DNA of 64,000 nucleotides from an uncultured Candidatus Binatia bacterium. GTDB lineage: Bacteria > Desulfobacterota > Binatia > Bin18 > CBDCRK01. Below, piece after piece: positions 40,199-62,587 of this stretch. The translations under genes and the position numbers were made by a program. Numbering within the stretch: position 1 is the stretch's first letter; each line of letters starts with the position of its first letter. The stretch lies in NCBI GenBank assembly GCA_965220955.1, contig CBDCRK010000004.1:23277-87276 (forward strand), given 5' to 3'. The notes under the pieces are model-generated. The model did not search any database. It saw only the letters and a list, made by a program, of their open reading frames with translations, and had not been told where the DNA came from.

Positions 40199-42082
40199 AT
40201 GGCCGAAACGACGTTCGACAGCACAAAAAGATCGCTGCGAGAGCTTATGACAAAGGCGGAATCCGGGGCAATTCAACTTCCAGATTTTCAGCGCGGCTGG
40301 GTCTGGGGTGATGAGGACATTCGCGGCCTTCTCGCATCTATTTCTCAGTCATTCCCAGTGGGCGCACTGATGACGCTCGAGACCGGCGGCAAGATCAACT
40401 TCAAACCGCGCCCAGTAGAGGGTGCGCCAACCTACGCCCACTCGGCAACGCCCGAGGCGCTTCTTCTTGACGGTCAACAGCGCATCACTTCGCTATTTCA
40501 GACGACGCTTCGCCGAGTCGTTGTCGAAACAGTCAATGCGAAGAAGAACGCAATCAAGCGCTGGTATTACATCAATATCGAGAAGGCCCTCGATCCGGAC
40601 GCAGACCGAGAGGAAGCTATTATCGGTCTCCCGGACAACAAACGCCTAACTAGCAATTTCGGACGCGACGTGCACCTCGACCTATCTACTCCCGAAGCCG
40701 AATTCGAGAACTTGATGTTTCCGGTCAACCAAATCTTCAACGACCGAGATTGGGAGCATGGCTTCGAAGATTACTGGCGAGACTGCGGAGACCCTGACAA
40801 GCGCAGCGTCTATCGGAAATTCTATGAAGAGGTCATCCGCGCATTCGATCACTACCAGCTGCCCGTGATCACTCTTGCCAAGGAAACGCCGAAGCAGGCG
40901 GTGTGTCTGGTATTCGAAAAGGTCAACACCGGTGGCAAGAAACTCGACGCTTTCGAGCTTCTGACGGCCATCTACGCTGCGGATGAATTCGAGCTGCGCA
41001 AAGACTGGCATGGCGACCCAAAGACGGATGTCGAAGGCCGTCTTGTCCGTCTCTGCAAATACGACACTCTGAAAGAGATCGCCAGCACGGACTTCCTGCA
41101 AGCGCTCGCGCTACTCAGTACCCGCAACCGTCGTCGTGGTGCGGAACGGGAAGGGCGGATAGGAAGGGAGCTTCCCGCCGTTTCCTGCACGCGGGCAGCA
41201 ATTCTCGATCTACCCCTCAGTGATTACAGGCGCTACGCAGACCAGGTCGAACATGGATTCGTTCTCGCTGCTCGTTTCCTGAGAACTCAAAAGATCTACC
41301 GTGTCAAAGACGTTCCCTACAGGACACAGATAGTTCCGCTCGCCTCTGTTCTTTCCGATCTTGGCGATCTCTGGGATCAAGAGACGGTCAAGGCCAAGAT
41401 CCGGCAATGGTTCTGGTGTGGCATTTTTGGAGAACTCTACGGTTCCGCCATTGAGACCCGTTTCGCCAAAGACTTCATTGAAGTCCGCAACTGGATCGAC
41501 GGTGGCGCGAAGCCAGAAACGGTCAACGAAGCGAACTTTCAACCCGACCGCCTCGACACTATGCGCATGCGACAATCCGCAGCCTACAAGGGCGTTCATG
41601 CGCTTCTGATGCGCGCGGGTGCACGGGACCTTCGTTCGGGTCAGACTATCGACGACACAGTGTTCTGGGATGAGAATGTCGATATCCATCACATCTTTCC
41701 GCAGGCTTGGTGCAAAAAGGCAGGTATTCCGAAGGTCTACGATGCCGTCGCAAACAAGACCCCGCTTACGCGATTGACCAACCAGATCATAGGAGACGCC
41801 GCGCCGTCGGAATATCTCTCGAAACTTGTTGGACAGGGCGCGATCGATCACGCAACACTTGATGAGTGCCTCGCGTCTCACATGATCAATGTCCCACTCC
41901 TGCGTGCCGACGACTTCGAGGCGTTTTATCGTTCGCGCAAGACCGCGCTTTTATGTCTCATTTCCGAGGCCATGGGCAAGTCCACCGACGAAGGCATGGT
42001 TCTGGACGAAGATGAAGGGGATGTAGTCCTGGAACCCGAAGAGGCCATCGAGAGCCAGCGTGATGGAGTACCGGGTCATTAG
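40199..42082 (+). CDS. DUF262 / DUF1524 protein (GmrSD-like type IV modification-dependent restriction enzyme family)
   Basis: N-terminal IQLPDFQRGWVWGDEDIRGLLASISQSFPVG and DGQQRITSL (DUF262, ParB-like). C-terminal DIHHIFPQAWC with a downstream N-K-T-P-L-T segment (His-Me/HNH-like, DUF1524). Confidence 0.8.
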   Translation: MAETTFDSTKRSLRELMTKAESGAIQLPDFQRGWVWGDEDIRGLLASISQSFPVGALMTLETGGKINFKPRPVEGAPTYAHSATPEALLLDGQQRITSLFQTTLRRVVVETVNAKKNAIKRWYYINIEKALDPDADREEAIIGLPDNKRLTSNFGRDVHLDLSTPEAEFENLMFPVNQIFNDRDWEHGFEDYWRDCGDPDKRSVYRKFYEEVIRAFDHYQLPVITLAKETPKQAVCLVFEKVNTGGKKLDAFELLTAIYAADEFELRKDWHGDPKTDVEGRLVRLCKYDTLKEIASTDFLQALALLSTRNRRRGAEREGRIGRELPAVSCTRAAILDLPLSDYRRYADQVEHGFVLAARFLRTQKIYRVKDVPYRTQIVPLASVLSDLGDLWDQETVKAKIRQWFWCGIFGELYGSAIETRFAKDFIEVRNWIDGGAKPETVNEANFQPDRLDTMRMRQSAAYKGVHALLMRAGARDLRSGQTIDDTVFWDENVDIHHIFPQAWCKKAGIPKVYDAVANKTPLTRLTNQIIGDAAPSEYLSKLVGQGAIDHATLDECLASHMINVPLLRADDFEAFYRSRKTALLCLISEAMGKSTDEGMVLDEDEGDVVLEPEEAIESQRDGVPGH

Positions 42083-42097
42083 GACTCGGCGAAGCTG

Positions 42098-42480
42098 GTG
42101 TGCGAGTTATGTCGCGCACGATATTCGGCTCAGGCATTCGGGAATGTGTCTTGTGTCAACTGTGAAGCATGCGAATGTCATTTTACACTCACGTACTTGA
42201 GCGGCTGGCCTAGCTATCATCTGGTGTGGCCCATCCACGGTGGCTTGAACCGTGCGGAGAACCGGGTACTGCTCCATCCCAACTGCCACGCCCAGGTCCA
42301 TAGCCAAGGATTGACCGTGGTGAAACCGCGTCCACAAGTAGGTGTTAGCAAGGCTTGAGCTGCCTGAGGGAGAACTTTCACGAGCAGTTCTGAGGGGGCT
42401 TGGCGGGAGCAATCTCGCCCGGCTACCCGGCGGGCGGTCCGCAAGGGCTGTCCCTACCGCGACGAAAGCACCGGGTGGGA
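42098..42480 (+). mobile_element. 5'-truncated group II intron fragment: IEP C-terminal HNH (En) domain plus flanking 3' intron-like sequence
   Basis: CELC...GWPSYHLVWPIHGGLNRAENRVLLHPNCHAQVHSQGLTVVKPRPQVGVSKA-stop matches the conserved end of bacterial group II intron maturases. The downstream sequence translates to ELSRAVLRGLGGSNLARLP, a pattern I recall commonly following such ORFs. The RT and X domains are absent, and I could not identify domain V. Confidence 0.55.
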
Positions 42481-42654
42481 CTTCATGGAGGAGTTTTGGT
42501 TGTTGACTTCTCGTCACGTCAGGCATAAAGGTCTGCGTAATGACGCCCTGAGATTGCTGATAACGGGCAGTAGGCAAAACTGCCTGAAAACCCTGCCAAT
42601 ATCACATTATCAGGGCAAAATGGCAAGTGAATCAATGGTTAGCCAACAATCGCT

Positions 42655-43893
42655 ATGGGGGGTCGCATGGGCACATTGCAAAGCGCGCTCGACCAAACAC
42701 TGCAGCATGCTCCTTATCAGCTCCTTGCTGACATAGTGTCGGACAAAATAGCCGCGCAAGATGTAACGTTGACCGCCCGCGAGCGTGAACAGTTGCTCAA
42801 CCATATCAGGTCGGACTCCGACGACGTCTTCTGTCTCCGGAGATGGCGCTGGTGGGAGAACCAGCAATTAAAAATCGAGCTCACGGAAGAGGATGCTGAA
42901 GCGGTCCATGATCACTTCACCGAGTTCATTGATACTCAATTGCCGGAATTGATCGCCTCGGCGGTCGAGGACCTGTCGGTCAGTATTCTTCTCACGCTCC
43001 ATCGTAATTGGCGAGCAGAATTGCGGCGTCAGGCCCGAGAGCGTCGGGGTTTCGACAAACGCCTGCAACAGCGGTGGGGTGAGGCAATCAGCCTTCTACG
43101 CATGATGCTCACGGTTTCCCGAGAGCTTGGCGAAATGACGCGCAACTCGATCGCAGATGATCCAGATTTCGCATCTCCCCACCTTCTGGACGTGCTCACA
43201 CGCTTACATGCACGAGCATGCCAGGTGACGGATGAGATAGCGTGTCTTCTCACCTCCGGTTTCGCGGATGGGGCCATAGCGCGCTGGCGGACGCTCCACG
43301 AGATCGCGATTGTCGCCTTCTTCGTCCAAGAGCACGGCGAGGACCTTGCCAGACGGTACACTGACCACCAAGTGGTCGAGTCGTTCCAGGCGGCCAAGGA
43401 CTACCGCGAGTGCTCGGAGCGGCTGGGCTACGAGCCCATGACAGAATCCGAGTTCGATGAGATCCGACAAGCATACGAGGAGATAGTCCAGCGCTACGGA
43501 GGTATGTTCAAGACGCAATATGGCTGGGCGGCTGATGCTCTGGGTCACAATCGGCCTTCACTGAAAGACATCGAACGATCCGCTGGAATCGATCACCTCA
43601 GAGCGCACTACAGACTGGCGAGCCATAATATCCACGCCAATCCCAAAGGTGTGTTTTTCAAGCTTGGCTTGTTCGAGGAAGTCGACGTGCTTCTTGCCGG
43701 TCCCAGCAATGCCGGTTTGGCAGGCCCAGGTCATAATGCCGCAATCTCGCTTTTGCATGTCTCTGTCGCCCAGGGACTGATTCAGCCGAATTTCGATTCA
43801 CTTGTTGGTTTACGGATACTGAGCAGACTGACAGACGAGATAGGCGAGGCCTTTCATAGAGCCCATCGGCAACTCGAAGAGGAAGCTGACTAA
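42655..43893 (+). CDS. Hypothetical protein, possibly DUF5677-like
   Basis: 412-aa ORF. The central ...HARACQVTDEIACLLTSGFADGAIARWRTLHEIAIVAFF... resembles the DUF5677 helical domain as I remember it. It lies between restriction genes. Confidence 0.45.
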   Translation: MGGRMGTLQSALDQTLQHAPYQLLADIVSDKIAAQDVTLTAREREQLLNHIRSDSDDVFCLRRWRWWENQQLKIELTEEDAEAVHDHFTEFIDTQLPELIASAVEDLSVSILLTLHRNWRAELRRQARERRGFDKRLQQRWGEAISLLRMMLTVSRELGEMTRNSIADDPDFASPHLLDVLTRLHARACQVTDEIACLLTSGFADGAIARWRTLHEIAIVAFFVQEHGEDLARRYTDHQVVESFQAAKDYRECSERLGYEPMTESEFDEIRQAYEEIVQRYGGMFKTQYGWAADALGHNRPSLKDIERSAGIDHLRAHYRLASHNIHANPKGVFFKLGLFEEVDVLLAGPSNAGLAGPGHNAAISLLHVSVAQGLIQPNFDSLVGLRILSRLTDEIGEAFHRAHRQLEEEAD

Positions 43894-43903
43894 CAGGCTA
43901 ATC

Positions 43904-43976
43904 AAGCTGACGAGCAAACCGCGTGGCGGTTCTTCAGCGTTTCCTGTAGTTCTATGGCCCGGTTTGCTCGCAGCTT
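43904..43976. repeat. Long inverted repeat after the DUF5677-like gene
   Basis: aagctgacgagcaaaccg (43904-43921) pairs with cggtttgctcgcagctt (43960-43976). 17 bp with one bulged A and a 38-nt loop. Confidence 0.7.
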
Positions 43977-44012
43977 ATCGGCAGCGTTAGCCGGGGGTCG
44001 GAGGTCCGAATC

Positions 44013-44571
44013 ATGATCCGAGTAGACGTCTTATTCTGCACAGTTTTTCTGCTAGTTGCTATTATGGAGCCGGCATGGGCGGCCCCTGGCGACAAGCTCT
44101 ACATCCAGAAGAACGGTGTGAACGTACGTACCGGCCCGGGCACGAACAATCCCGTTCTACTCAAGCTCAACAAAGGACACGAGCTCATTGAGTTCTCGTC
44201 AGGGCAAGTGGATCAACGTCGGAATTGCCCGAACAGGTGGGAAGGACGATTGGATTCATTCCTCCTTGGTTGCGTCCATGTCCCCAGGAGGTACGACAGT
44301 CGCCCCCGCTGATTCTCGTTTCGACGCCTTCGTACGTGACGTCGAGAAACTGAACAACAAGGTCAAACCCATCTCGGGCTTTCCCTTCTTTACCAGGGTG
44401 GAGAACCTCGGCGATGGCATCGTTCAACTCACGGCACCGCGGAACGGTCGCGAGAGCAACCTCAATACGCTCTTCAACCTCTGGTCTGCACACGAAGCGT
44501 CGGGGCTGCCTATCGCTGTCTACATTGTTGATTCCCAAGGCAATATCGTCATGAAGAAGGCGCGCCGTTGA
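44013..44571 (+). pseudogene. Secreted SH3b-domain protein with one frame break near 44190
   Basis: Signal peptide MIRVDVLFCTVFLLVAIMEPAWA, then YIQKNGVNVRTGPGTNNPVLLKLNKGHELIE in one frame. SRQGKWINVGIARTGGKDDWIHSSLV... continues in the next frame to 44571. Confidence 0.6.
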
Positions 44572-44594
44572 AGGCCAATGGCTAACAAGGAGAT

Positions 44595-44623
44595 GGAGCT
44601 GACGGGTGACAGCATGGTTTTTT
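44595..44623 (+). repeat. Left copy of an imperfect direct repeat flanking mrr
   Basis: ggagctgacgggtgacagcatggtttttt. 17 of the first 19 nt match the right copy, and both are followed by T runs. Confidence 0.5.
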
Positions 44624-44735
44624 CTCCAAATCGACCGTCTCATTCCTGTCACTCGCCGCTCATCTCTGACGTTAGGTTCACATTACTAAAGGGTTCAAAG
44701 CTGTCCATAAGATCACCTCAGGTTCTGGAGCATTG

Positions 44736-45614
44736 ATGGAAACGCCACAGTTCTACGAATTCATGAATCCTACTTTACAAGCGATGCGCACAGGCGGCGG
44801 AACCCTGACAAACGGGGAGATCGTCGAGGCGGTCGTGACCCTCATGCAGTTGCCAGATGAGGTACTCGACCGCAAACAACACGGCCACAATCTCGGCGAG
44901 GTTGAGTATCAAATAGCCTGGGCAAAGTCGTATCTCAAGAAAGCCGGCTACCTCACGCAGAGTGCCCGAGGGGTCTGGGCTTTGACGCCCCAAGGCAAAG
45001 AGACGGACAGCGTGGATGGGCGAGCGCTCATGACCGAGATACGCCGAGAGTATGTCGCCCGCCGGAAGGAAAAATCCACCCTCCAAGCCTCTCAGGAACC
45101 ACCGGAGAAAAGTGACGAGGAGGCGTCGGCAGAGGAGGAAATCGAGGAAGAACTCGGTTGGAAGCAACACGTGCTGGCAACCATCCTGACGATGTCCCCG
45201 GATGCCTTTGAACGTCTCAGCCAACGTCTGCTGCGTGAGTGTGGGTTCACCCAGGTGGAGGTCACGGGGCGATCGGGGGATGGCGGTATTGACGGCAAAG
45301 GGGTGTTGCGGCTTGGTGGGCTCATCAACTTTCAGGTGGTCTTTCAAAGCAAGCGCTATGCTGGCACGGTGAGTGCGAGTACGGTTCGGGACTTTCGCGG
45401 TGCCATGATTGGGCGGGCAGACAAAGGGCTCATCCTCTCCACCGGGACCTTCAGCCGCGATGCACGTGCCGAGGCCATCCGCGATGGAGCACCGGCCATC
45501 GACCTCGTGGATGGACAGGAATTGGCCGACCTCCTCAAGAAATACGAACTCGGGGTCAAGACAGTCATGGTAGAAAGGGTCGCAGTGGACGTGGATTGGT
45601 TCAATACGATCTAA
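44736..45614 (+). CDS. mrr: Mrr-family restriction endonuclease (Mrr_N winged helix plus Mrr catalytic domain)
   Basis: The N-terminus PQFYEFMNPTLQAMR...GEIVEAV is Mrr_N-like. The C-terminus has GRSGDGGIDGKGVL...VVFQSKRY, a PD-(D/E)xK Mrr core. Confidence 0.8.
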   Translation: METPQFYEFMNPTLQAMRTGGGTLTNGEIVEAVVTLMQLPDEVLDRKQHGHNLGEVEYQIAWAKSYLKKAGYLTQSARGVWALTPQGKETDSVDGRALMTEIRREYVARRKEKSTLQASQEPPEKSDEEASAEEEIEEELGWKQHVLATILTMSPDAFERLSQRLLRECGFTQVEVTGRSGDGGIDGKGVLRLGGLINFQVVFQSKRYAGTVSASTVRDFRGAMIGRADKGLILSTGTFSRDARAEAIRDGAPAIDLVDGQELADLLKKYELGVKTVMVERVAVDVDWFNTI

Positions 45615-48412: not shown

Positions 48413-48709
48413 GTGAAGCGCTTCTCTCCGTCTTACAAAGCCCGCTGCCTTACCGCCTTAGAAAGCTTTGCCCGGTCAAGTGACCGGATTGTTCGCCTTC
48501 AGCCTTATACAGACCCAACGGCAGTCTGTGTCCTATGTGGCAAAGAAGCAATCATTCGCTGTGTGCCTTTGCACAATACCCGCACCGGTGAACAAATCAT
48601 TGTTGGCTCTGAGTGCGCGCAAAATTACCGGGTGTTTCTGCGTGAGCTGCGCAAGCGCCAGAGAAACCGGCGGGCGGCGTACCGCTTGCAGGAAGAAAAA
48701 ACTCCCTAG
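48413..48709 (+). CDS. Small hypothetical protein with a zinc-ribbon-like Cys pattern
   Basis: 98 aa, GTG start. CVLCGKE...GSECAQNY. Its basic C-terminal tail (RNRRAAYRL) is encoded by one copy of the 15-nt motif. Confidence 0.4.
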   Translation: MKRFSPSYKARCLTALESFARSSDRIVRLQPYTDPTAVCVLCGKEAIIRCVPLHNTRTGEQIIVGSECAQNYRVFLRELRKRQRNRRAAYRLQEEKTP

Positions 48710-50954
48710 AGCGGTTTGCGCTTGAGCTTATCAACCGCTATACCAATTATTCCCCAAGGGTTTATTAGACTCTTGCCAATCTCCCTTATAGTTTGTTCAC
48801 CTGAGTCGGTCTCAATCATCCAACAATTGATCATCAGAGAGTGAGGAGAAGACATGTCTAGACTTCGCCCAACTCTCGCCTATATAATAGTATAATCAAT
48901 CGGGCGGCGTACCGCTTCGGCGGGCGGCGTACCGCTTGTGGTGTGGTGTGGGAGGATGCCATGAAAAAATACGCCCGGACGGCGTACCGTGGGCGGCGTA
49001 CCGCTAGTGCTGAAAATATTCTTCCTGCGGACCTCGGCAGCGAAGCTGAGGCACGCTACTTAAACTACGCCCTAAGCGTTATCACCTCGCGGGCATTGCC
49101 TGACATACGTGACGGGCTTAAGCCAGTACAGCGCCGTCTACTCTTTGCCATGCATCAAAATCTACATCTGTCAGCCGAAGCCAAGCCGCGCAAGTCCGCA
49201 GCGGTAGTAGGGGAAGTCCTGGGGAAATACCATCCTCATGGTGATCAGGCTGCTTATGAGGCTTTGGTCCGCCTGGCTCAGCCCTTCTCTCTGCGTTATC
49301 CACTCATCCATGGAGAAGGCAACTTTGGTTCTATAGATGGGGATAGGGCTGCGGCCATGCGTTACACCGAGGCAAAGCTCACCCTTTTGGCCCAAGAGCT
49401 ATTTGGCGGCGGGCGGCGTACCGCTCTGCAAGAGATTACAGTCCCCTTCCGTCCTAATTACGATGCCACTCTCGAAGAGCCGGTGGTATTGCCTGCCGCT
49501 ATCCCCCAACTGCTTATAAACGGTTCAACAGGCATTGCCGTGGGCCTGTCCACCAACATTCCTCCCCATAACCTCTCTGAGGTGATTGACGGGCTTATAG
49601 CCCTGATTGACGATCCCGAGATCTCCATCCAGGGATTGCTCAAGTACATTAAGGGCCCTGATTTTCCTACTGGAGGAGAGATTCTCACAACCAAGCGAGA
49701 GCTTCGCCAGATTTATGAAGCCGGCCAGGGGACACTACGGCTCCGTGCCAAGTGGCAGATAGAATCACTGCCTCGGGGCAAACAGCAGATTATTATTACT
49801 TCTCTCCCCTACACGGTGAATAAAGCACAGCTGGTGGAAAAAATCGCCGAGTTGGTAGGAAACCGCAAACTTCCCCAGGTGGTAGACGTACGCGATGAAT
49901 CTACTGAAGAGGTACGCCTTACTCTAGAGCTCAAAGGAGACACCTCCGCTGAACTAGCCATGGCCTACCTCTTTCGCCATACTCCCCTGCAGATCTCGTT
50001 TCCCATTAACCTTACCTGCCTTGTGCCCACGGCAAACTCACTGGTAGGGCAGCCCGCACGGGTAACCCTAAAAGAAATGTGCCGCTACTTTCTTGACTTC
50101 CGCATGGAGGTGGTCAGCAAGCAGCTAGAGCACGAACTACAGGAATTAGAAAAACGCTTGCACATTCTTAAGGGGCTCGAACTCATCTCCGGCCGCCTGG
50201 ACCAGGTTATCCAGCTTATTCGCTCGGCTGCCTCGCGAAAAGAGGCACGGGAAAAACTGACGGGCGGCGTACCGCTTGCATCCGGGCCGGTACGCCGAAG
50301 CGGGCGTACCGCTTTCCACCCGGGCGGTGTACCGCTTGACGAGGTCCAAGCCGAGGCCATTCTGGAAACCCGCCTCTACCAACTTGCCCGTCTGGAGCTG
50401 GACAAGATCGAAAAAGAACAGGCAGACAAAGAGAAGCAGGCAAAAGAGCTGAGGAAACTTTTGGGGGACACCCAGAAGCGCTGGTGGCTGATTCGAGAGG
50501 AGTTGCTGGCACTCAAGCAGCACTATAGAGACAGACGCCGTACTAGCCTGACCGCTGGCGAAGAGCTGAGCTATGATCCCGAGGCATACATCGTCCACGA
50601 GGAGGCAACGGTGGTCTTAAGCCGCGACGGCTGGATCAAGCGGGTACGGGAGCTTAAGGATCCTACTAGTACCCGTTTGCGTGAGGGAGATGCCATTCGG
50701 GCGATTCTCTCTGGGACCACCCGTGACCGTCTGGCCCTGTTTACCAACTATGGTGGGCTCTATGTTATAAAAATATACGATGTGCCCGCTTCGACCGGCT
50801 ATGGCGAACCTATTCAGACCATCCTCCGCTTTCAGGACGGCGAACAAGTAGTAAGCGCCAAGCTTGTAAGCGAGCCACCCCAACAGGGGAACGGCAAAGT
50901 CAATGGTCAAGTGAACGGCACGGATCAAGAGAATCTTTCGGGCGGCGTACCGCT
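48672..50954 (+). repeat. Dispersed family of a 15-nt GC hairpin motif GGGCGGCGTACCGCT (about 10 same-strand copies)
   Basis: Exact copies at 48672, 48902, 48922, 48991, 49411, 50262 and 50940. Variants at 48977 (ggacggcgtaccgt), 50302 (gggcgtaccgct) and 50322 (gggcggtgtaccgct). A partial inverted copy is at 50287-50297. No copy was noticed elsewhere in the window. The core GCGG-CGUA-CCGC can form a 4-bp GC stem with a tetraloop. Confidence 0.9.
48859..48888 (+). promoter_or_regulatory. Possible promoter of the topoisomerase operon
   Basis: TAGACT (48859-48864), an 18-nt spacer, then TATAAT (48883-48888). A second TATAAT is at 48891-48896. Two tandem motif copies lie between this region and the GGGAGGA Shine-Dalgarno. 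Confidence 0.3.
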
Positions 50955-51468
50955 CTCTTCTCCGTCTGCGCCACTCGCAGAAGAGGCCACAGATTCGACA
51001 AACTCCCTGCAGAGTTACCTCCTGGCCACCACCAAAGGCCTGGGTTTTCGTTTTCAGCCAAATTTTACCGAGACCAATCGTAACGGCAGAAAGGTAGCCA
51101 GGGTGGCGGAAGGCGACGAGATCGTCTCTATTGAACCCATTACCAGCCCACTGGCGGTATGTGTCACTGCCCAGGGTCGGATAACAACCTTTCCCGTGAA
51201 CGAGGTGGCTGAGCTTTCCGGTCCAGGGCGGGGGGTAATCTTGATGCGTCTTGACCGGAACGACCGCCTGATTGGTGCTGTTACTACTACTCCGAGTGAG
51301 GGCATTACTGTGGTGGACACTGAGGGCAACGAATGTGAGGTGCCTTTGAGGAAGATTTCTCCAGGACAGCGGGCAAGCAAGGGACAGAGAGTCATAAAAC
51401 GCCTAACCCTCACGGGGGTGCGGAATAAGGTTGCGGAGGGAGGGATGAACAGTCATGACAACGCTTAA
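48961..51468 (+). CDS. Type IIA topoisomerase subunit A (GyrA/ParC family; ParC-like, since no canonical GyrA box was seen)
   Basis: [23 protein letters not shown], active-site [29 protein letters not shown]. The C-terminal domain begins [12 protein letters not shown], without a QRRGGKG-type box. Start taken at ATG 48961, after GGGAGGA. The ORF is open from 48943. Confidence 0.85.
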
Positions 51469-53380
51469 AAGTGAGGCAAATGGTTATACCGCCAAAGACA
51501 TCACCGTCCTTGAGGGCTTGGAACCTGTTCGTAAACGCCCGGGCATGTATATTGGCGGGGTAGACAGCCCTGGTCTTCACCACTTGGTGTGGGAGCTCCT
51601 AGATAACGCTGTAGACGAAGCCATCAACGGGTACGCAAGCCGCATTGAGGTCAACCTGCACAAAGATGGCTCCACCATTACCGTTACGGATAATGGCCGG
51701 GGGATTCCCGTTGACATGCACCCAAAGTTCAAAAAAACTGCTCTGGAGCTAATCCTTACTACGTTGCACGCTGGCGGCAAGTTTGCTGACCATCTCTACT
51801 CTCATGCTGGCGGGTTACACGGTGTGGGCGCATCGGTAGTCACGGCGCTTGCGGATAAATTGATTGCTCAAGTAAAGCGTGATGGATTTATCTGGGAACA
51901 GACCTTTTCTCGGGGAAAGACTACTTCACGCCTCAAGCAAATCGGCAAAGCACAGGATACGGGAACCACCATTACTTTTCACCCAGATCAGGACATTTTT
52001 CCTTCTATTACTTTCAAGCCCAGGCTGATTGCCGAACGACTAGAGGCAAAGTCATACCTGCATAAAGGGCTGAGGCTGACTTTCCGCAACGAGCAAACCG
52101 GAGAGGAGACTCGCTACTATCACCAGGACGGGCTTAAGGCCTACTTAGAAAAAGTTGTTAAGGAAAGAGAAAGAAAGCCAGTCATTGGCGAGGTTTTCTC
52201 TCTAGAACGCCGCGAAGAGCCACCGCTGGAGTGTGTACTGACCTGGACCGAAGCTACAGACGAAACCATGCTTACGTTTGTCAATGGAATTCCTACGCCA
52301 TTTGGAGGAACCCACGAAAGCGGGCTAAAGAGCGGGTTGGTCAAAGCAGTGCGCAACTACCTCAGCGTTCACGATCTTATCCCCAAAGGGCTCACTGTGA
52401 CCGCCGAAGACATCCGTGAGGGACTGGTTGCCATTCTCAGTCTCTATCTTACCCTCCCTCAGTTCCAGGGGCAGACCAAAGAAAAACTGGGCAACCCTGA
52501 GGTGACAGCCCAGATCGACGGGCTTATCCGCACCTCTCTGGAGAACTTTCTGTTGCACAACCGCTCGCTTGCCGATGCCATTGTTAACCGCATCATTCTT
52601 GCGGCCAAAGCCCGCACCGCCTCGCGAGCAGCAGCGGAAACGGTCAAAGGTAAAGGCTCTGTCTCCCACCGCCTTAACCTCCCTGGCAAGCTTGCCGACT
52701 GCACCTCAACCAATCCCGCAGTCAGCGAGCTGTTTATTGTTGAAGGGGACTCGGCCGGTGGTTCTGCCAAACAGGCACGCGACCGCGGATTTCAGGCGGT
52801 TTTGCCGCTGCGAGGCAAGGTGCTCAACACCGAGCAAGCCTCTCTTGCCAAGGTGCTCACCAACAAGGAACTCACCGACCTGGTTTCAGCCCTGGGGTGC
52901 GGGGCAGGCAAGAGCTTCTCACTGGAGAAACTCCGTTACCACAAAATCTGCCTGCTTATGGATGCCGACTCTGATGGCAACCACATCTGTACCCTGCTTC
53001 TTACTTTCTTCTACCGTCACCTTCCTGAGCTTATTCACCAGGGTCACCTCTACATTGCCCAGCCCCCGCTTTACAAGATCGAGGCAGGTAAAGAGACTTT
53101 CTGGGCACGCGACGATGGAGAAAAGGAGAGCATCCTGAGTAACCGCAACGGAAACCGAGAAAAGACTCAGGTACAGCGCTTCAAAGGCTTAGGGGAGATG
53201 AATCCACGGACACTCAAGGAAACAACCCTTGATCCCCAAAGTCGCTCGCTGCTGCGCGTGACCATTGATGACGCCGCCCGCACAGAGGCCAGCATTCAGA
53301 CCCTTATGGGCCGGGAGGTCCAGCCCCGTTTTGCCTTCATTATGGGGCGGGCACCCAAGGTCGAAGAGCTGGACGTGTAG
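51455..53380 (+). CDS. Type IIA topoisomerase subunit B (GyrB/ParE family)
   Basis: [24 protein letters not shown], the Toprim segment [31 protein letters not shown], and [10 protein letters not shown]. Overlaps the subunit A gene by 14 nt. Confidence 0.9.
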
Positions 53381-53388: not shown

Positions 53389-53643
53389 ATGCAAAGCAAG
53401 GTATCGGTAAGAGGACAAACCGTTATCCCCTGGGAGATCCGCAAGACCCTGGGCATCACCCCCAACACAGTCCTTCACTGGCAGGTCCAGGACGGAGCCA
53501 TCCTGGTGTACCCAGTGCCGTCCGACCCCGTGAAGGCCTCTCTAGGTATCCTCAAGGGCAGGGGCACTTTCCAGGAGTTCCTTCGAGAACGGAATGAAGA
53601 GCGGGCCAGGGAACTTCGCCTCCCCTATAAAGCCCGTCGCTAG
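53389..53643 (+). CDS. AbrB/MazE/SpoVT-family antitoxin-like DNA-binding protein
   Basis: MQSKVSVRGQTVIPWEIRKTLGITPNTVLHWQVQDGAILVYP is a SpoVT-AbrB swapped-hairpin domain. It starts 9 nt after the subunit B stop. No cognate toxin ORF follows. Confidence 0.7.
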   Translation: MQSKVSVRGQTVIPWEIRKTLGITPNTVLHWQVQDGAILVYPVPSDPVKASLGILKGRGTFQEFLRERNEERARELRLPYKARR

Positions 53644-53706
53644 TCCTATCCTAAGGTAGCCGCCTTCCACAGTGACCTGAGCAAAAAAGGGCAAGGAGAG
53701 GAAGGG

Positions 53707-56700
53707 TTGGCTGACTTAAACGATAACCTCGCAAGACTCAAACCGGACGTCATTGTCCGGGGACCGATCTTCCCTGAGCCGGTTCAAGTGATTGTAGCGG
53801 TCCCGATGGGTGACTCCGTCAAGCTTGTTGGTAAGGGACTCAACACCGGTCAGGTCCACGAGCCAATCCTCAATGCTGAGCAACTGGCACAGTTAGAGGC
53901 TACCCCAGACAAGGAGCCGTTTGACGGCGACCCGAAAAAGTTCCGTATTGGGCTCGAGGCATTGCGCCTGGCTTTGGCCTATGAGTACGATCCCTATTTC
54001 TCGCTCTCTATTGCGCGGGTGGACCCTCTCCCTCATCAGCTTGAAGCGGTCTATGACTATTTTCTGAAGCTGCCCCGTATCCGCTTCCTACTTGCCGATG
54101 ACCCTGGTGCAGGCAAAACCATCATGGCTGGCCTGCTCTTGAAGGAACTTAAAATACGAGGGCTGGTTCAGAGGACGCTCATTGTCACACCCGCCAACCT
54201 TTCGTTCCAGTGGCAGCGGGAGATGAAAGACAGATTTCGAGAGAGCTTCGAGGTCATCCGCAGCGACATTCTGCGGGCAAACTATGGCTCCAACCCCTGG
54301 CAGGAAAAAAACCAGGTGATTACCTCAGTGTCCTGGGTCTCGCGCATTGAGGATGCCAGGGAAAGTCTCCTGCGCAGTCACTGGGACCTCATTATTGTGG
54401 ACGAGGCGCATAAAATGAGCGCCTATAGTGCGGATAAAAAGACCCTGACTTACCAACTGGGTGAAGCCCTTTCCACAATGACCGACCATTATCTGCTGAT
54501 GACGGCAACGCCCCACAAGGGCGACCCGAAGAATTTTTGTCTCTTTCTCGAACTCCTGGACCGCGATGTCTACGGTGACGTGAAGAGCCTCGAAGAGGCT
54601 ATGCGTCGCAACAATGCCCCCTTCTATCTACGCCGGACCAAAGAGGCCCTGGTCACGTTCCCCGACCCGGACACCGGTCAAATCAAGAAGATCTTTACCA
54701 ACCGCGATGTCCAGACCGTCGAGTTTCACATTGATGAGGATGAATGGGATTTCTATGATGCTCTGACCCGCTACGTTGAAGACCAATCCATCAAGGCGTC
54801 AGTGGATGATTCCGCACGTGGCCGGGCGCTGGCGTTTAACATGGCCATGCTACAACGCCGATTTGCCTCCAGCATCTATGCGGTGCGGCGTAGCCTGGAG
54901 CGCATGCGGGATAAGCGCCAGAAAATTCTCGACGATCCAGAAGCTTACCGGCAGGAGCAGATCACCAGGAGGCTCCCGGACGACTTTGACGAGCTTCCCG
55001 AAGAGGAACAGCAGGAAATCATTGAGTCTCTGGAGGGAATGGTTGCCTCGGTTGAACCCGCTGCCCTCAGGGAAGAAATACTCCAGCTTAGTGAGCTCAT
55101 CGACCAAGCTGGGGTTCTGGAGAAGCGCGAGGTTGAATCAAAGCTAGTGAGACTCAGGCAAGTCCTCACCGAGCAGGGCATCTTTCAGAACCCTAAGATG
55201 AAGCTCCTGCTCTTCACGGAGCATAAGGAGACTCTCGACTACCTGATTGGCAAGCTTCAGGAATGGGGACTGTCCGTTACCCGGATCCATGGCAGTATGA
55301 AGATCGGAGATCGGGATACCCCAGGTACTCGCATCTATGCTGAGCGGGAATTCCGAGAAGAATGCCAGGTCATGGTGGCTACCGAAGCGGCAGGCGAAGG
55401 CATCAACCTGCAATTCTGCTGGTTCATGATCAACTATGACATCCCGTGGAACCCGGTGCGCCTGGAACAACGGATGGGACGCATCCACCGTTACGGCCAG
55501 GAGCACGACTGCCTGATCCTGAACTTTGTTGCCATCAACACACGCGAGGGACGTGTCCTGCAAAGACTCCTGGAACGGCTGAGGGAAATCCGCAAGGAGC
55601 TGGGAACCGATCAGGTTTTTGACGTGGTGGGTGAGGTCTTCCCGGCTAATCTGCTGGATAAGATGTTCCGGGACCTGTACGCCAATAAGGTGGATGTACC
55701 AGATATAGAAGCCCGTATTGTCCAGGATATCGACGCTCGGAGGTTTCGGGCAATCACCGAGTCAACCCTGGAAGGACTGGCCAAACGTGAACTCAACCTC
55801 TCCGTGCTTATTGGTAGGTCTGCTGAGGCCCGTGAGCGTTGCCTCGTCCCTGAGGTGATCGAGAACTTCTTTGCCCAGGCTGCCCCTCTGGCCGGAATCC
55901 ACCCCAGGGAGACCAGGGCAAACACGCATGTCTACCGAATCGGCCGGGTTCCCCGGACCTTATGGCCCATTGGCGAGCGCCTGGAACCGCGCTTTGGCAA
56001 GCTAGGCCGTGAATACCGCCAGATCGTCTTTGACAAGGCATTGTTGTTGAAAGACGCCACATCTGAATGGGTGACACCAGGCCACCCCCTATTCGAGGTG
56101 GTACGCGAAGATGTGATTGAGCGTGTTCGCAATGATCTACAACGGGGCAGCCTTTTCTACGACCTTCACCACAAAGAGCCTTATCGCTTGGATGTTTTCA
56201 CCACTTCAATCAAGGACGGTCGTGGGAACCTCCTGCACCGGAAGCTCTTTGTTGTCCAGACCGACCTGGACGGCTCCATGTCGATCAAGCAACCGACCCT
56301 TTTCCTCGATCTTGCGCTTGCACCCCAAGGCACGCCAGTCCCAGAAGAAGCTAGCCTCCCTGACCGGCATGTTGCTGAACAAACCTTGATCGAAAAGGCA
56401 CTCAACTCTTTCTTGGCAGACGTAGCTGCTGAACGAGAGCGAGAGACAGCAATGATTGCCGAGCACATCGAGATCAGTCTCAATGAGCTGATCCACCGCC
56501 AGAACCTCAGGCTTGCAGATCTGCTGGAACAACAGCAGAAAGGCGACACATCACCCCTACTTGCCGCCAATATGAAGCAGATTGAAGACCGGCTCGATGA
56601 GCTCAATGGTCGTCTGGAACGCAGGCGGGTAGAACTCCAGCAGGAACAGCAGTGCACCATTGGCAACATTCAGCACATCAGCCGGGCCTGGGTACTGCCG

Positions 56701-57132
56701 CACCCAGAACGCCAGTCACCTGGTATCGCCCCGATGGTGAGGGACAATGAGATTGAGCGGATCGCGGTCGATACTGTGACGGCATATGAAGAAGCACGAG
56801 GCTGGCAGGTTGAGAGTGTGGAGAAGGACAATCGTGGCTTTGACCTCATCTCACGCAAACCCCACCCAGAAGATCCAGAGACTGCCATCGAGGTACGGTT
56901 TATCGAGGTCAAGGGCCGGGCAACCGTCGGCGTGGTTGCGCTGACAACTAACGAGTATAAAACCGCCGAGCGGCTCAAGAAGGATTACTGGCTCTACGTG
57001 GTCTTCAACTGTACCTCGGCGCCTGAGGTCCACTCAATCCAGGACCCGACACGTCTAGGTTGGAAGCCGCTGGTGAAGATCGAGCATTATCATGTAGGGG
57101 CAGAAGAAATTCTCTCAGCAGAGGAGAATTGA
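53707..57132 (+). CDS. SNF2-family helicase with a C-terminal DUF3883 (restriction-endonuclease-like) domain
   Basis: 1141 aa, TTG start. LADDPGAGKT (motif I), IIVDEAHKM (DEAH), helicase C motifs ...ATEAAGEGINLQ... and ...NPVRLEQRMGRIHRYGQ. The C-terminus has RGFDLIS...IEVKGR...LTTNEYKTAERL...YWLYVV, typical of DUF3883. Confidence 0.85.
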   Translation: MADLNDNLARLKPDVIVRGPIFPEPVQVIVAVPMGDSVKLVGKGLNTGQVHEPILNAEQLAQLEATPDKEPFDGDPKKFRIGLEALRLALAYEYDPYFSLSIARVDPLPHQLEAVYDYFLKLPRIRFLLADDPGAGKTIMAGLLLKELKIRGLVQRTLIVTPANLSFQWQREMKDRFRESFEVIRSDILRANYGSNPWQEKNQVITSVSWVSRIEDARESLLRSHWDLIIVDEAHKMSAYSADKKTLTYQLGEALSTMTDHYLLMTATPHKGDPKNFCLFLELLDRDVYGDVKSLEEAMRRNNAPFYLRRTKEALVTFPDPDTGQIKKIFTNRDVQTVEFHIDEDEWDFYDALTRYVEDQSIKASVDDSARGRALAFNMAMLQRRFASSIYAVRRSLERMRDKRQKILDDPEAYRQEQITRRLPDDFDELPEEEQQEIIESLEGMVASVEPAALREEILQLSELIDQAGVLEKREVESKLVRLRQVLTEQGIFQNPKMKLLLFTEHKETLDYLIGKLQEWGLSVTRIHGSMKIGDRDTPGTRIYAEREFREECQVMVATEAAGEGINLQFCWFMINYDIPWNPVRLEQRMGRIHRYGQEHDCLILNFVAINTREGRVLQRLLERLREIRKELGTDQVFDVVGEVFPANLLDKMFRDLYANKVDVPDIEARIVQDIDARRFRAITESTLEGLAKRELNLSVLIGRSAEARERCLVPEVIENFFAQAAPLAGIHPRETRANTHVYRIGRVPRTLWPIGERLEPRFGKLGREYRQIVFDKALLLKDATSEWVTPGHPLFEVVREDVIERVRNDLQRGSLFYDLHHKEPYRLDVFTTSIKDGRGNLLHRKLFVVQTDLDGSMSIKQPTLFLDLALAPQGTPVPEEASLPDRHVAEQTLIEKALNSFLADVAAERERETAMIAEHIEISLNELIHRQNLRLADLLEQQQKGDTSPLLAANMKQIEDRLDELNGRLERRRVELQQEQQCTIGNIQHISRAWVLPHPERQSPGIAPMVRDNEIERIAVDTVTAYEEARGWQVESVEKDNRGFDLISRKPHPEDPETAIEVRFIEVKGRATVGVVALTTNEYKTAERLKKDYWLYVVFNCTSAPEVHSIQDPTRLGWKPLVKIEHYHVGAEEILSAEEN

Positions 57133-57134
57133 CA

Positions 57135-58600
57135 ATGACTTTCTACCACTGGCAACCGATTGAGGATCTTCCGTACTCTTGGCAGGAATTGGTGTCCACC
57201 GACTTGGCAAGCTTGGCATCTATATGGAAGGATCAATCGAAGAGACTTCAACAGTCCGATGCCCTGAAACAGTTTAACGAGCGCCTTTGCCGTGAGTGGG
57301 CTATTGAAACCGGTGTTATTGAAAATCTCTACTCCATTGATCGTGGAATTACACAAGTGCTAATCGAGAAAGGTATTGAGGCTAGCCTGATTCCGCATGG
57401 AACAACAGATAAACCAGTGGAGTTAGTTATTCCTATTCTCAAAGATCAAGAGGAAGCTCTAGAGGGGCTTTTCGACTTTGTCAAACAGCAAAGAGCCTTA
57501 TCAACGTCTTATATAAAGCAACTCCATCAAGTTTTTACCCGTCACCAAGAAACGGTCCCGGCCATCAATGGTATAGGACGCCCAACGGAAGTGCCTCTTC
57601 TCCGTGGAGAATGGAAAAAATGGCCTAATAATCCGAATCGCCCTGACGGAACAATTCATGAATACTGCCCCCCCGAGCACGTAGCGGCTGGAGATGGACC
57701 GGTTAATAGAGATGCATGAACGACATATAGCATGAGGGTATTTCGCCCGAAGTGCAAGCGGCTTGGCTACATCATCGGTTTACGCAAATCCACCCCTTTC
57801 AAGATGGAAACGGCCGCGTTGCTCGTGCCCTTGCTTCGTTGATCTTCCTGCGTGCAGGCTGGTTTCCGCTTGTCATCAACCGGGACATTCGAGAGGAATA
57901 TATCCGTGCTTTAGAACACGCCGATCAAGGCGAGTTGCAGTCTTTGATTGGACTTTTCACCAGAATTCAGAAAAAAGCATTCGTAACTGCATTTAGCATT
58001 TCGGAAGATGTGCTTAGGGGTCGGGAACCGCTCCAGCAAATGATTAGTGCCGCAGCGGAGCGTCTACGGGCTAGGGCAGAGATGAAAATTCAAGAGCGGC
58101 GAAAGGTGTTCAGTTTCTCACAACGCCTGGAGGAAATGGCTCGAACACGCCTACAAGAGATAGCAGACATTTTGTCAAGTGAATTGAGACAAGTGGATAT
58201 CCAATACCTCGTGACTGCTGACAGAAGCGACTCTGACACGGACCATTGGTTCAAAAAACAAATCGTAGATATAGCGAGGGATCTGGATTATTATGCCGAC
58301 ACACGAAGCTATCGTACCTGGGTGCGGTTAAAGATCCGCGAGGAACGGCAAGCTGAGTTGGTGATCACGTTTCATTCTCTTGGAGTCGAGTTTCTTGGGA
58401 TTATGGCAGCCTCCTCGTTCATGGAATACCGGGATAGGAGTGAAGACGGCGAAGTAACGATAGAGGGACCTTATCCTGTGTGCAAGGATATTTTTCAGTT
58501 TTCCTATAACGAGCAGGAGCAAGAAATAGTTGAGCGTTTTCAGCAATGGTTGAATGATGCGCTCCTAGTAGGACTTGACCAGTGGAGAAGGCAGCTTTGA
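57135..58600 (+). pseudogene. Fic-domain protein with two frame breaks (near 57690 and 57733)
   Basis: The Fic motif HPFQDGNGRVARA is in the 57752-58600 frame. The N-terminal part (MTFYHWQPIEDL...) is in another frame. The bridging segment EMDRLIEMHERHIA is readable in the third frame. Confidence 0.7.
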
Positions 58601-61600: not shown

Positions 61601-61650
61601 AGCGTTGGGTGGATGGCGTGCTTGCTCGGAAAAAAGGACTGGGGTTTTGA
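58582..61650 (+). CDS. DUF1156-domain N6-adenine DNA methyltransferase with a Zn-ribbon (COG1743-like)
   Basis: N-terminal LIEVDLPIKRISAHARREKSIRHGHISTLHIWWARRPLAACRAVI (DUF1156). Cys pairs CEGPGC...CPACG. Catalytic FFTDPPYYD (DPPY). Confidence 0.85.
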   Translation: MEKAALIDTNNHPKRLIEVDLPIKRISAHARREKSIRHGHISTLHIWWARRPLAACRAVICAALWPDPANEHCPQAFREKAAELVTTFAIKAASTGKLADSCSQESIARWLTLAKPENHLDLNNPSHLNVLRFALLDFIADFANWDNSTKKEYLEASRALTQAAHEALGGDPGTKPLVVDPFAGGGAIPLEALRVGADAFASDLNPVAVLLNKVVLEYIPKYGQRLADEVRKWGEWIKKEAEKELAKFYPRDPDGATPIAYLWARTITCEGPGCGAEVPLMRSFWLAKKGNRSVALRIISRPKAKQVEFEIIENAQIRDISEGTVRRGSATCPACGFTTPVGSVRQQLRKRRGGAVDARLFCVVMTRPGAQGRFYRLPNEKDWQAAYAAAKELERCERVYKGKPSMVPNERYPDETGSGALSSSVVYGPRTWGDLFIPRQALALTMLVKLVRIAGEKMTQEGETGLALAVQTCLAMTVDRAAEHGSSLCRWNANGEKLQATFGRQALPMTWDVCETNPFGSSVGSLSSLLELVQITIKTASYLPSEGTTAAASATIHSLPNDFAQGFFTDPPYYDAIAYGDLSDFFFVWLKRTIGDLYPSLFSSELVDKTDEIVHLSQRFRGPYSHKTKEYFEKNMQLAMEEGRRVLAPDGVGIVVFAHKSTGGWEAMLQAMVDAGWVMTGSWPIDTEMGTRMNAMGAATLASSIHLVCRPRENADGSLRTDDIGDWRDVLAELPKRIHEWMPRLAAEGVVGADAIFACLGPALEIFSRHSRVEKASGERVTLKEYLELVWAAVAREALNMIFEGADATGFEEDARLTAMWLWTLSTGTSGNGSGDSEAESEEDEGASIKKAKTSGFVLEYDAARKIAQGLGAHLEHLASLVEVKGDKARLLLVSERTRALFGKDEGKAPAKRKKKATQLTLFGALSAGRQALGEVEEEGDGWGEKNAPQLGNTVLDRIHQSMILFAAGRGEALKRFLVEDGVGRDQRFWRLAQALSALYPAGTDEKRWVDGVLARKKGLGF

Positions 61651-61666
61651 CAAACGGAGGAATCTT

Positions 61667-61967: not shown

Positions 61968-61973
61968 TAACCA

Positions 61974-62575: not shown

Positions 62576-62587
62576 GAGGGCTGAAAA

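Follow-up and report, generated by a model that had tools for sequence, protein, structure and literature searches.

What has brought the same short hairpin motif ten times into 2.3 kb of DNA in and around one topoisomerase gene of a Candidatus Binatia bacterium, and why did the gene survive it? In the stretch of DNA analysed here (64 kb, hereafter the window, out of a genome of ~5.5 Mb), we found the exact 15-mer GGGCGGCGTACCGCT seven times on the forward strand (at 48672, 48902, 48922, 48991, 49411, 50262 and 50940), together with one match carrying a single mismatch (50322) and two degenerate copies (48977, GGACGGCGTACCGTG; 50299, AGCGGGCGTACCGCT) on the same strand; an inverted partial copy lies at 50284–50298. 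Ten of the 11 copies in the window fall within the locus 48672–50954, and 8 of the 11 are located in coding DNA. Allowing up to two mismatches, 9 matches are observed vs 0.09 expected from shuffled sequences, and none of 100 shuffles attained 9. All counts refer to the window; the contigs matched by its proteins (26 kb and 11 kb) reach ~2 kb beyond it. The initial annotation, which had reported about 10 forward-strand copies within 2.3 kb and placed every one of them correctly, saw the motif nowhere else in the 64 kb and took it to be confined to one essential locus. However, a copy with one loop mismatch (GGGCGGCGTTCCGCT) is present at 6844–6858 on the reverse strand, antisense inside an ORF at 6603–7040, whereas ~0.005 one-mismatch matches of this kind are expected by chance. 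As this near-perfect copy is 42 kb away and on the other strand, the element is not strictly confined to the locus.

Copies of the 15-mer along the locus

Copy 1 (48672–48686, exact) is found in a small Cys-rich ORF of 98 aa (48413–48709, forward strand) upstream of parC, for which there is no NCBIfam or Pfam family match, and reads as an in-frame 5-aa insertion, (R)AAYR, near the C-terminus. Further downstream, a sigma-70-like promoter (TAGACT-18-TATAAT) is predicted at 48859–48888 on the forward strand, and the promoter block TCTAGACTTCGCC..ACT.TCGCC is kept in both close relatives. Between the TATAAT box and the Shine-Dalgarno sequence, where the predicted 5' UTR begins, lie copies 2 and 3 (48902–48936, both exact) with a period of 20 nt; at their position one close relative (L084) has nothing and the other (L083) an unrelated 38-nt hairpin insert. 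The topoisomerase gene itself (48961–51468, forward strand) starts with an ATG at 48961 that is conserved in the relatives together with the Shine-Dalgarno sequence, and encodes a type IIA topoisomerase A subunit of 835 aa. Though first labelled gyrA, it is ParC/topoisomerase IV-like: in an alignment to E. coli GyrA a gap stands in the place of the GyrA box (QRRGGKG), and the A subunit is therefore not a canonical gyrA product. Its score of 686 bits fails the cut-off of 877 of the GyrA equivalog model TIGR01063, it passes only the subfamily model PRK05561, and its best NCBIfam match is a generic topoisomerase II/IV A-subunit model. The gene for the B subunit (ParE/GyrB-like, 641 aa; 51455–53380, forward strand) overlaps the A-subunit gene by 14 nt and holds no copy of the motif.

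Within the first 15 codons of parC, the degenerate copy 4 (GGACGGCGTACCGT) abuts the exact copy 5 (48977–49005), the two forming a 30-nt/10-aa N-terminal insertion. Copy 6 (49411–49425, exact) is a clean 15-nt/5-aa insertion after ELF that is read as GRRTA. A cluster of four copies (50262–50336) opens with the exact copy 7 (50262–50276; read as GGVPL), the first unit of a 45-nt insertion, continues with the inverted partial copy on the reverse strand (50284–50298, core GGCGTACCG) and with the variant copy 8 (50299–50313; read as SGRTA), which forms a 7-bp stem with its flanks (z = -3.2), and closes with copy 9 (50322–50336; one loop mismatch, C7T), which is an insertion of 15 nt in its own right and again gives GGVPL. 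Copy 10 (50940–50954, exact) adds another 15 nt, likewise translated as GGVPL, to the variable linker of the C-terminal domain (CTD). The initially reported frames (AAYR/TAYR, GRRTA twice, GGVPL three times) are right, and SGRTA can be added to them.

The copies occupy seven separate sites spread over 2.3 kb and use three reading frames; they adjoin one another only in the 5' UTR pair and the N-terminal pair, and this scatter does not correspond to a head-to-tail tandem (VNTR). Their orientation is near-uniform. The 15-mer has the length of five codons, is free of stops in all six frames and carries neither a GTAG nor a CGTC tag at either end, CGTA being its loop. Its core stem measures 4–5 bp and extends to 6–7 bp when flanks and G.U pairs are included in the folding, the variant at 50299 still reaching 7 bp. 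The inverted partial copy and copy 8 together form an inverted repeat that pairs perfectly over 9 bp around a 6-nt loop; apart from this REPIN-like doublet (50284–50313), all copies are single or direct.

Insertions relative to homologues and their age

With 795 aa vs 835 aa, the A subunits of the two closest relatives (86% aa identity) are 40 aa shorter, and all copies are missing from them as well as from 42 further homologues. The gaps in the parC alignment measure 30, 15, 60 (45+15) and 15 nt and that in the small ORF 15 nt, every insert in coding DNA having a length that is a multiple of 15. Residues at the three N-terminal-side blocks are present in 0 of 44 homologues, and at the linker block in 1 of 44. 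The small ORF has a homologue of 97 aa in L084, which is ~93% identical up to ...RKRQRNR, and deletion of the 15-mer yields the junction ...RNR|L... found there. In 1.32 Mb of related loci no copy at one mismatch or fewer was detected, and no similar repeats were found in L083 and L084, the latter being syntenic with the window on both sides of the locus. No junction shows a target-site duplication; since a shift of the 15-nt deletion by 0 to -3 nt alters the fit to the empty sites by only 1–2 mismatches, the placement of the junctions is precise only to about 3 nt. At the protein level, the insertions fall into the N-terminal tail, two loops and the linker of the C-terminal domain. This placement of loops rests on the alignment to the solved E. 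coli GyrA, a poor structure model of ParC (mean pLDDT 51.8) having been left out of the argument.

The insertion sizes given in the initial annotation are borne out by comparison with actual sequences (+5 aa after ELF, +20 aa before the conserved helix), and in the alignment of orthologues that it had proposed each coding copy indeed corresponds to a lineage-specific insertion. Its notion of nucleotide-level, frame-preserving insertions into tolerant loops agrees with the use of three frames and with the absence from 44 homologues, and a nucleotide-level element rather than a peptide motif is thus supported by the comparison. An origin in place by point mutation, as for HIP1, uptake sequences or Chi, does not apply, as the copies add 15 nt or multiples thereof.

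parC remains under purifying selection (dN/dS 0.10), with a dS of 0.70–0.79 to the relatives. By our own arithmetic, the branch leading to the window amounts to ~0.49 synonymous substitutions per site, so that a neutral 15-mer of that age would be expected to carry ~7 changes. The observed numbers are 0 in seven copies, 1 in one and 3 in two. That seven copies have remained identical against a dS of 0.7–0.8 to the relatives shows them to be recent; judged by these substitution counts, the copies arose long after the lineage had separated from its nearest relatives, which points to a series of insertion events, most of them recent.

How the copies may have arisen

The best explanation, to which we give an about even chance, is a lineage-specific miniature hairpin repeat of 15 nt, selfish or neutral and similar to REP, REPIN and small dispersed repeats (SDRs), that would have entered the small ORF, the 5' UTR and the parC coding sequence by repeated, recent copying. 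Copying would proceed in discrete quanta of 15 nt, which came to lie singly, doubly or as a triple with one inverted unit. The unit may have propagated as a single-stranded hairpin in a copy-and-paste manner with a strong bias to nearby re-insertion, the agent most likely being a trans-acting enzyme encoded outside the window, HUH/RAYT-like or other. Insertion might favour sites just 5' of CT or CTG, a preference that is only tentative because the junctions resolve to ~3 nt. Copies would persist in the gene because each adds five stop-free codons and because the sites hit were the N-terminal tail, two loops and the linker; any effect on expression, e.g. through the pair of 5'-terminal mRNA stem-loops, would be incidental and not the cause of the copies. 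Dispersal beyond the locus is supported by the opposite-strand copy at 6844, which has TTC..CT flanks in common with copy 10, although the homologues of ORF 6603–7040 are too divergent to class this copy as an insertion or as native. The packing of 10 of the 11 known copies into 2.3 kb counts against such an element; no transposase, RAYT, reverse transcriptase or integrase is encoded in the 64-kb window, and we know of no mobilising enzyme for an element as small as 15 nt with a stem of 4–5 bp. Only tentatively do we put forward a more far-reaching proposal: as an autonomous-looking 'nano-element', the 15-mer would be smaller than any other DNA unit known to multiply by insertion, and a host or orphan enzyme would move it in the form of a single-stranded hairpin, with strong local hopping. 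That it prefers a topoisomerase gene would then belong to the general bias of hairpin repeats towards genes of DNA metabolism.

Local insertion of templated patches, which needs no dedicated element, appears rather unlikely to us. A nascent strand would switch to a nearby copy at microhomology (C.., ..CT/CTG) during replication restart or break repair and then return; only patches that are multiples of three would survive in coding DNA, and the repeat would therefore grow in cis around its first copy. The extreme clustering, the uniform orientation and the lack of target-site duplications, with junctions that slide over common C or CT bases, are all in line with this, as are the 20-nt instead of 15-nt period of the non-coding 5' UTR pair and the 9-bp perfect palindrome made with the inverted partial copy, which looks like the product of snap-back synthesis. 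Flanks also seem to have been carried over: the 21-nt CGGCGGGCGGCGTACCGCTTG stands unchanged at both 48668 and 48918, and the motif plus TGCA recurs at 48672 and 50262, two copies whose surroundings agree in 27 of 30 nt and which each have a native left flank. Such common flank bases (CGGC..TG at 48672 and 48922; ..TGCA at 48672 and 50262) are explained by a template in a neighbouring copy no less well than by an element of fixed length. However, frame-filtered patches of variable length should also yield insertions of 12, 18 or 21 nt, whereas the four resolvable single events are all exactly 15 nt and the composites 30 and 45 nt. The near-perfect copy on the opposite strand 42 kb away is difficult to reconcile with growth in cis, and to our knowledge there is no bacterial precedent for ten repeats of one templated patch.

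Less probable still, and in our judgement improbable, is a recently selected array of cis-acting sites useful to the topoisomerase operon, whether as stabilising 5' stem-loops, internal RNA hairpins, sites for RNA- or DNA-binding regulators, or binding/cleavage sites of the topoisomerase. Selection of this kind could explain why seven copies stayed identical despite a long branch, why all copies of the locus are on the sense strand, G.U pairs in the RNA extending the stem there to 6–7 bp, and why degenerate copies still pair (A-T for G-C at 48977, an alternative 7-bp stem at 50299). The two copies situated just where the mRNA is predicted to begin, a spot at which L083 has a different hairpin, would fit as well, and so would published work on REPs, which describes them as gyrase-targeted and reads G-T pairs as an indication of an RNA-level function (PMC3733652). 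The copies are, however, missing in relatives of 86% aa identity that have the same promoter and Shine-Dalgarno sequence, and for this reason they do not form a conserved regulatory system; as a conserved device, the autoregulatory binding-site array initially suggested is thus unsupported. Moreover, the intragenic positions follow permissive protein loops and not a regular spacing, the 5' UTR folds no better than shuffled sequences (z = -0.59), a search of Rfam for known RNA families gave no match, and a function would leave the arrival of the 15-mer at ten sites unexplained, an insertion process still being needed. An artefact of sequencing or assembly, or a chimeric contig, is very improbable: the locus is known from metagenome assemblies, but three differently made assemblies agree on every copy (an ENA metagenome contig and the Logan assembly of ERR13605531 contain all copies at 99.9% identity to the window, without differences within 48.4–53.4 kb), the insertions preserve the frame in two genes, include diverged copies and coincide with loops, synteny with L084 is unbroken on either side, and the motif resembles no adapter sequence known to us.

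Relation to known small repeats

The GTAG/CGTC-tagged REPs (Di Nocera et al. 2013, PMC3733652), with REPINs (PMC3116915), resemble the miniature hairpin repeat favoured here in being short G+C-rich stem-loops with G-T pairs in their stems that in some cases insert in frame within genes, singly, as inverted dimers or in clusters, without target-site duplication and in a species- or strain-specific manner; the one inverted doublet (50284–50298 plus 50299–50313) with its perfect 9-bp stem recalls REPINs in particular. Unlike them, the unit is only 15 nt long (REPs measure 20–40 nt or more) and lacks a terminal GTAG/CGTC tag, nearly all copies within the window are intragenic or in the leader, in one orientation and at one locus, whereas REPs are numerous, scattered and mostly extragenic, and a RAYT gene is absent among the genes of the window. 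REPs of E. coli are binding and cleavage sites of gyrase. Intragenic REPs favour genes of DNA replication and repair, are sometimes clustered and in some cases tag a single coding sequence of a species (PMC3733652); the present locus would add a further case of this DNA-metabolism bias from a poorly known phylum.

The resemblance to Rickettsia palindromic elements (RPEs) noted at the outset is apt as an analogy, as both make frame-preserving insertions in coding DNA: RPEs are palindromes inserted in frame in genes, also essential ones, at surface-exposed sites of host proteins that stay functional. However, they comprise ~100–150 bp (30–50 aa) and are dispersed over many genes, several per gene being the exception. 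Features of RPEs and MITEs (70–300 bp, terminal inverted repeats and, for MITEs, target-site duplication) are not found in the 15-mer. Insertions by template-switch (quasi-palindrome) mutagenesis or end joining share with our copies the local copying, junction microhomology, perfect inverted repeats and independence of a transposase, but are known as single idiosyncratic events and not as ten copies of fixed length. The small dispersed repeats SDR4-6 of Nostocaceae were reportedly described by Elhai et al. in 2008, in Genome Res 18:1484. In cyanobacteria, small dispersed repeats insert precisely (PMC5861425, PMC4390886). SDRs are, like the 15-mer, tiny repeats far below the size of MITEs that insert precisely in conserved sequence, are absent from close relatives and have no known enzyme or mechanism; in contrast to it, they measure 21–27 nt instead of 15 nt and occur in many dispersed copies per genome, while the copies of the 15-mer known so far cluster in one locus, SDR5 targets the HIP1 octamer, and they are known only in heterocystous cyanobacteria, whereas the host here belongs to the Binatia.

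In our best reading, the 15-mer works like REP and SDR repeats and ranks among the smallest repeats so far observed to act as mobile DNA. Should this be confirmed across the genome, the lower size bound of DNA that spreads by insertion would drop to 15 nt, and its identical, one-mismatch and three-mismatch copies would provide a datable series of events for studying how tiny repeats move, a question standing since SDRs and RPEs were reported. The locus also offers a natural map of permissive sites, in which a type IIA topoisomerase, although strongly constrained by purifying selection, tolerates eight five-residue insertions at four protein sites (N-terminal tail, after the ELF helix, in the loop before the QAxAIL helix, and CTD linker). 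Gene callers and phylogenies built on alignments can be misled by repeats of this type, which could also be used to mark strains.

Other candidate sources were examined and rejected. None of 26 CRISPR spacers matches the motif or parC; the window carries a cas6-cas4-cas1-cas2 locus and an array of 27 repeats. For a phage origin, the 16-mer gave 42 single hits in IMG/VR, never two per contig, which by a rough estimate is about the chance level. A metagenome scan for the tandem pattern had a sole match (L085), a 27-nt coding tandem repeat (QSGTPPSA) in an MscK-like gene with 66% G+C, which we judge to be unrelated and to contain the 15-mer by chance; its TTGCA flank resembles that of two copies in the window. 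Ordinary GTAG-headed palindromes, unrelated in sequence to the 15-mer, are present in intergenic DNA of the window at 7311, 13112 and 34590.

Copies of the 15-mer and their host genes

Searching the 64-kb window for GGGCGGCGTACCGCT, we found seven exact matches (at 48672, 48902, 48922, 48991, 49411, 50262 and 50940), all on the + strand, and one further + strand match with one mismatch at 50322; dinucleotide-preserving shuffles predict only 0.09 matches with up to two mismatches. Two diverged + strand copies at 48977 and 50299, and an inverted partial copy at 50284-50298, came to light with the 9-nt core GGCGTACCG. All copy positions in the initial annotation and all peptides translated from them were correct, but its statement that the motif occurs nowhere else in the 64 kb needs amending: a remote copy with one mismatch lies on the - strand at 6844-6858, and as we estimate a chance expectation of ~0.005 for such a copy, the motif is not strictly absent from the rest of the window. 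In a k-mer census the 15-mer is the sole repeat family of this kind in the window besides the CRISPR repeats.

The ORF at 48961-51468 encodes the A subunit of a type IIA topoisomerase, for which only the subfamily model PRK05561 passed, with scores under both the GyrA and the ParC equivalog cut-offs. Aligned to E. coli GyrA, the window protein has a gap at the GyrA box region; we therefore call the gene topo IV/ParC-like (parC in the following) rather than gyrA, as it had been labelled. The gene of the B subunit (51455-53380) overlaps it by 14 nt, and the closest genome matches are Candidatus Binatia MAGs with at most 69% amino acid identity. A promoter-like element, TAGACT-18-TATAAT (48859-48888), lies in a block conserved in the two closest relatives (contigs L083 and L084) and puts the tandem copies 48902 and 48922 right at the predicted start of the 5' UTR. 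Both the ATG at 48961 and the GGAGGA Shine-Dalgarno sequence are conserved in the relatives as well, so that the two N-terminal copies are translated. Just upstream of parC lies a small Cys-rich ORF (CxxC ... C ... C; 48413-48709 in the window, 870-1163 in L084, absent in L083) with no Pfam or NCBIfam match, possibly a zinc ribbon. The operon is flanked by defence-type genes, upstream at 40199-45614 (GmrSD_N, DUF5677, Mrr) and downstream at 53389-64000 (a MazE-like antitoxin, an SNF2/NOV_C helicase of 1141 aa, Fic, DUF1156 of 1022 aa, UPF0175, DUF433, DUF5615 and DUF499).

Empty sites in the closest relatives

A protein search matched the window's own ParC-like protein in a 5.54-Mb contig. The proteins of the two relatives comprise 795 aa versus 835 aa in the window and are 86% identical to it over aligned residues. 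When L083 and L084 were aligned to the window at the nucleotide and codon level, the site was empty at every copy, the lineage-specific insertion that an alignment of orthologs had been proposed to reveal. Compared with both relatives, the window gene carries 30 additional nt at the N-terminus, 15 nt at 49411 (after ELF), 45 and 15 nt flanking the conserved (S/A)F(H/Q) at 50262-50336, and 15 nt at 50940. This bears out the suggested insertion in multiples of 3 and adds up to 120 nt, i.e. eight 15-nt units, equal to the 40-aa length difference. The use of all three reading frames, also noted initially, holds within parC itself; the unit, read directly, is stop-free in all six frames. L084 conserves the small upstream ORF as well; deleting the 15-mer from the window version restores ...RNR directly followed by L..., so that a second gene brings the in-frame events to six. 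In an alignment with 44 homologues (63-86% identity), the first three inserted blocks are empty in all of them, whereas the block in the variable linker is occupied in one.

Outside the coding sequence, the 5' UTR of the window holds ~36-38 extra nt, and L084 has none at the same place. At the position of the window's two 15-mers, the L083 5' UTR (about 1085-1125) instead carries an unrelated 38-nt hairpin insertion with an 8-bp inverted repeat (AGCGAAGC..GCTTCGCT); the parC leader position thus seems to collect hairpins.

Mean pLDDT of the AlphaFold model was 51.8, too poor for placing the insertions, and positions were mapped by alignment to the solved E. coli GyrA (6RKS). The first insertion falls in the N-terminal tail, ahead of the first residue aligned to E. 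coli GyrA; the second follows immediately after the helix ending in ELM/ELF, a point at which the E. coli sequence is gapped too; the third lies in the loop preceding the QAQAIL helix, the site of a separate and much longer insertion in E. coli GyrA; and the fourth falls within the variable portion of the C-terminal domain. parC is functional, as its dN/dS against either relative is 0.10-0.11, the same as between L083 and L084. Taken together, these facts demand a lineage-specific, recurrent and mostly local copy-and-paste process at the nucleotide level, along with a filter retaining only harmless insertions.

Age, junctions and hairpin structure

With a dS of 0.70-0.79 between the window and the relatives, the three pairwise values give by our arithmetic ~0.49 synonymous substitutions per site on the window branch, and a neutral 15-mer as old as this branch should have accumulated ~7 changes. 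Seven copies show none (105 nt), one copy shows one and two copies show three. Those seven would therefore be younger than ~6% of the branch, and so insertion was spread over a long period with most copies recent, unless the 15-mer itself is under selection. Homogenisation is unlikely, since RecA-dependent gene conversion needs stretches longer than 15 nt.

Compared with the empty sites, the junctions show no target-site duplications. Sliding a 15-nt deletion by 0 to -3 nt alters the fit to the empty site by only 1-2 mismatches, since native bases match those at the two ends of the element (C..., ...CT). All six resolvable sites allow their native sequence to be read as N^CT (CGG^CTG, GAC^CTG, CGG^CTA, AGG^CTC, CAG^CTT and CTC^CTC), tentatively a target preference. 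Identity between copies can extend beyond the 15-mer: 48672 and 48922 share CGGC..TG (21 nt of identity), and 48672 and 50262 share ..TGCA (27/30 nt identical). These flanks are native at 48672 yet lie inside inserted DNA at 48922 and 50262, which hints that at least some copies were templated from a neighbouring one.

The bare unit is predicted to fold into a 4-bp DNA stem (-4.7 kcal/mol). As sense-strand RNA with two flanking bases per side, nine copies form stems of 5-7 bp including G.U pairs (-7.3 to -9.7 kcal/mol); the variant copy 50299 retains a 7-bp stem (z = -3.2), and the degenerate copy 48977 has A-T in place of the consensus G-C. Copy 50299 and the inverted partial copy form a perfect 9-bp palindrome resembling a REPIN doublet. 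The whole 5' UTR folds no better than shuffled sequence (z = -0.59), and a search of Rfam returned no family.

Candidate processes and distribution

The 15-mer fails the defining tests of several known systems. It differs in size from REPs and lacks their GTAG or CGTC tag; it differs in size from MITEs and RPEs and lacks target-site duplications; HIP1-type motifs arise by substitution, whereas each copy here adds length; and, in contrast to tandem repeats, the copies occupy separate sites in three frames. Precise insertion and absence from close relatives are shared with SDRs (PMC5861425, PMC4390886), but the 15-mer is shorter and its host belongs to another phylum. REPs inside genes show a preference for those of DNA replication and repair; some form clusters, and in some species no other coding sequence is tagged (PMC3733652).

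We give even odds to a miniature hairpin repeat, REP/REPIN- or SDR-like, which would be mobilised in trans in its single-stranded hairpin form. It is favoured by the insert size quantised at 15 nt, the absence of target-site duplications, the inverted doublet, the remote copy on the opposite strand and the published preference of intragenic REPs for replication and repair genes. Its main rival, to which we assign about half that weight, is enzyme-free template switching from neighbouring copies: it gains support from flanks shared between copies, from the non-coding pair being spaced at 20 nt and from the tight clustering, but is weakened by the constant 15-nt insert size and by the copy at 6844-6858. 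A selected array of cis-acting sites appears rather improbable; an insertion process is needed regardless, and the relatives share the promoter without the copies, which leaves the initially proposed binding-site array for autoregulation unsupported as a conserved system. A recent effect on mRNA stability or topoisomerase binding is still conceivable. An assembly artefact can practically be dismissed, as two other sequences, ENA metagenome contig ERZ25067264 (26 kb) and the Logan assembly of run ERR13605531 (11 kb), contain this locus (99.9% identity) and all of its copies, and their few differences from the window all lie outside 48.4-53.4 kb.

No copies with up to one mismatch were found in 1.32 Mb of related loci, nor any comparable repeat in L083 or L084. 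IMG/VR gave 42 single hits to a 16-mer, about chance level, and the JGI metagenomes one tandem match. It lies in an unrelated MscK-like gene of 66% G+C (Ga0315553_10000886, 398-480), whose coding sequence holds three tandem 27-nt units encoding QSGTPPSA(A/V); their antisense strand reads the exact 15-mer followed by TTGCA, like the TGCA flank of two window copies. We judge this a coincidence.

None of the genes in the 64-kb window codes for a transposase, RAYT, reverse transcriptase or integrase. Intergenic DNA at 7311-7339, 13112-13140 and about 34590-34618 contains palindromes headed by GTAG (GTAGGGGCGGGTTTGAAACCCGCCCCTAC and variants), whose sequence is unrelated to that of the 15-mer. They resemble a conventional REP-like family, suggesting that a RAYT may be encoded in this genome as well. 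A CRISPR-Cas locus spans 1351-6507 (cas6 1351-2265, cas4 2392-3030, cas1 3039-4040, cas2 4089-4364), with an array at 4562-6507 of 27 37-nt repeats in two variants (..CTCTGTAAGAG.. and ..CTCCGTAGGAG..); its 26 spacers match neither the motif nor parC, nor any other part of the window. Two adjacent - strand ORFs (34591-35049 and 35051-35719) both match Ycf48/BNR-type PSII_BNR and may be one gene broken by a stop codon or frameshift, and two tandem paralogous Amidohydro_2 genes (22978-25225, 368 aa each) have exact 13-14-mers in common.

Against L081, a contig of the same locus from another assembly, the window shows a cluster of substitutions with two 1-nt indels at 57690-57737. Fic is a single 487-aa ORF in L081 and two ORFs in the window (57060-57719 and 57752-58600), which means that the allele is disrupted or the assembly is wrong here. 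At 46877 a G-run is one G longer in the window than in L081 and in L082, a further such contig, possibly through a homopolymer error or a frameshift; the run lies near the start of a LytB-UbiA fusion gene, whose ORF has 528 aa in the window and 582 aa as called in L081.
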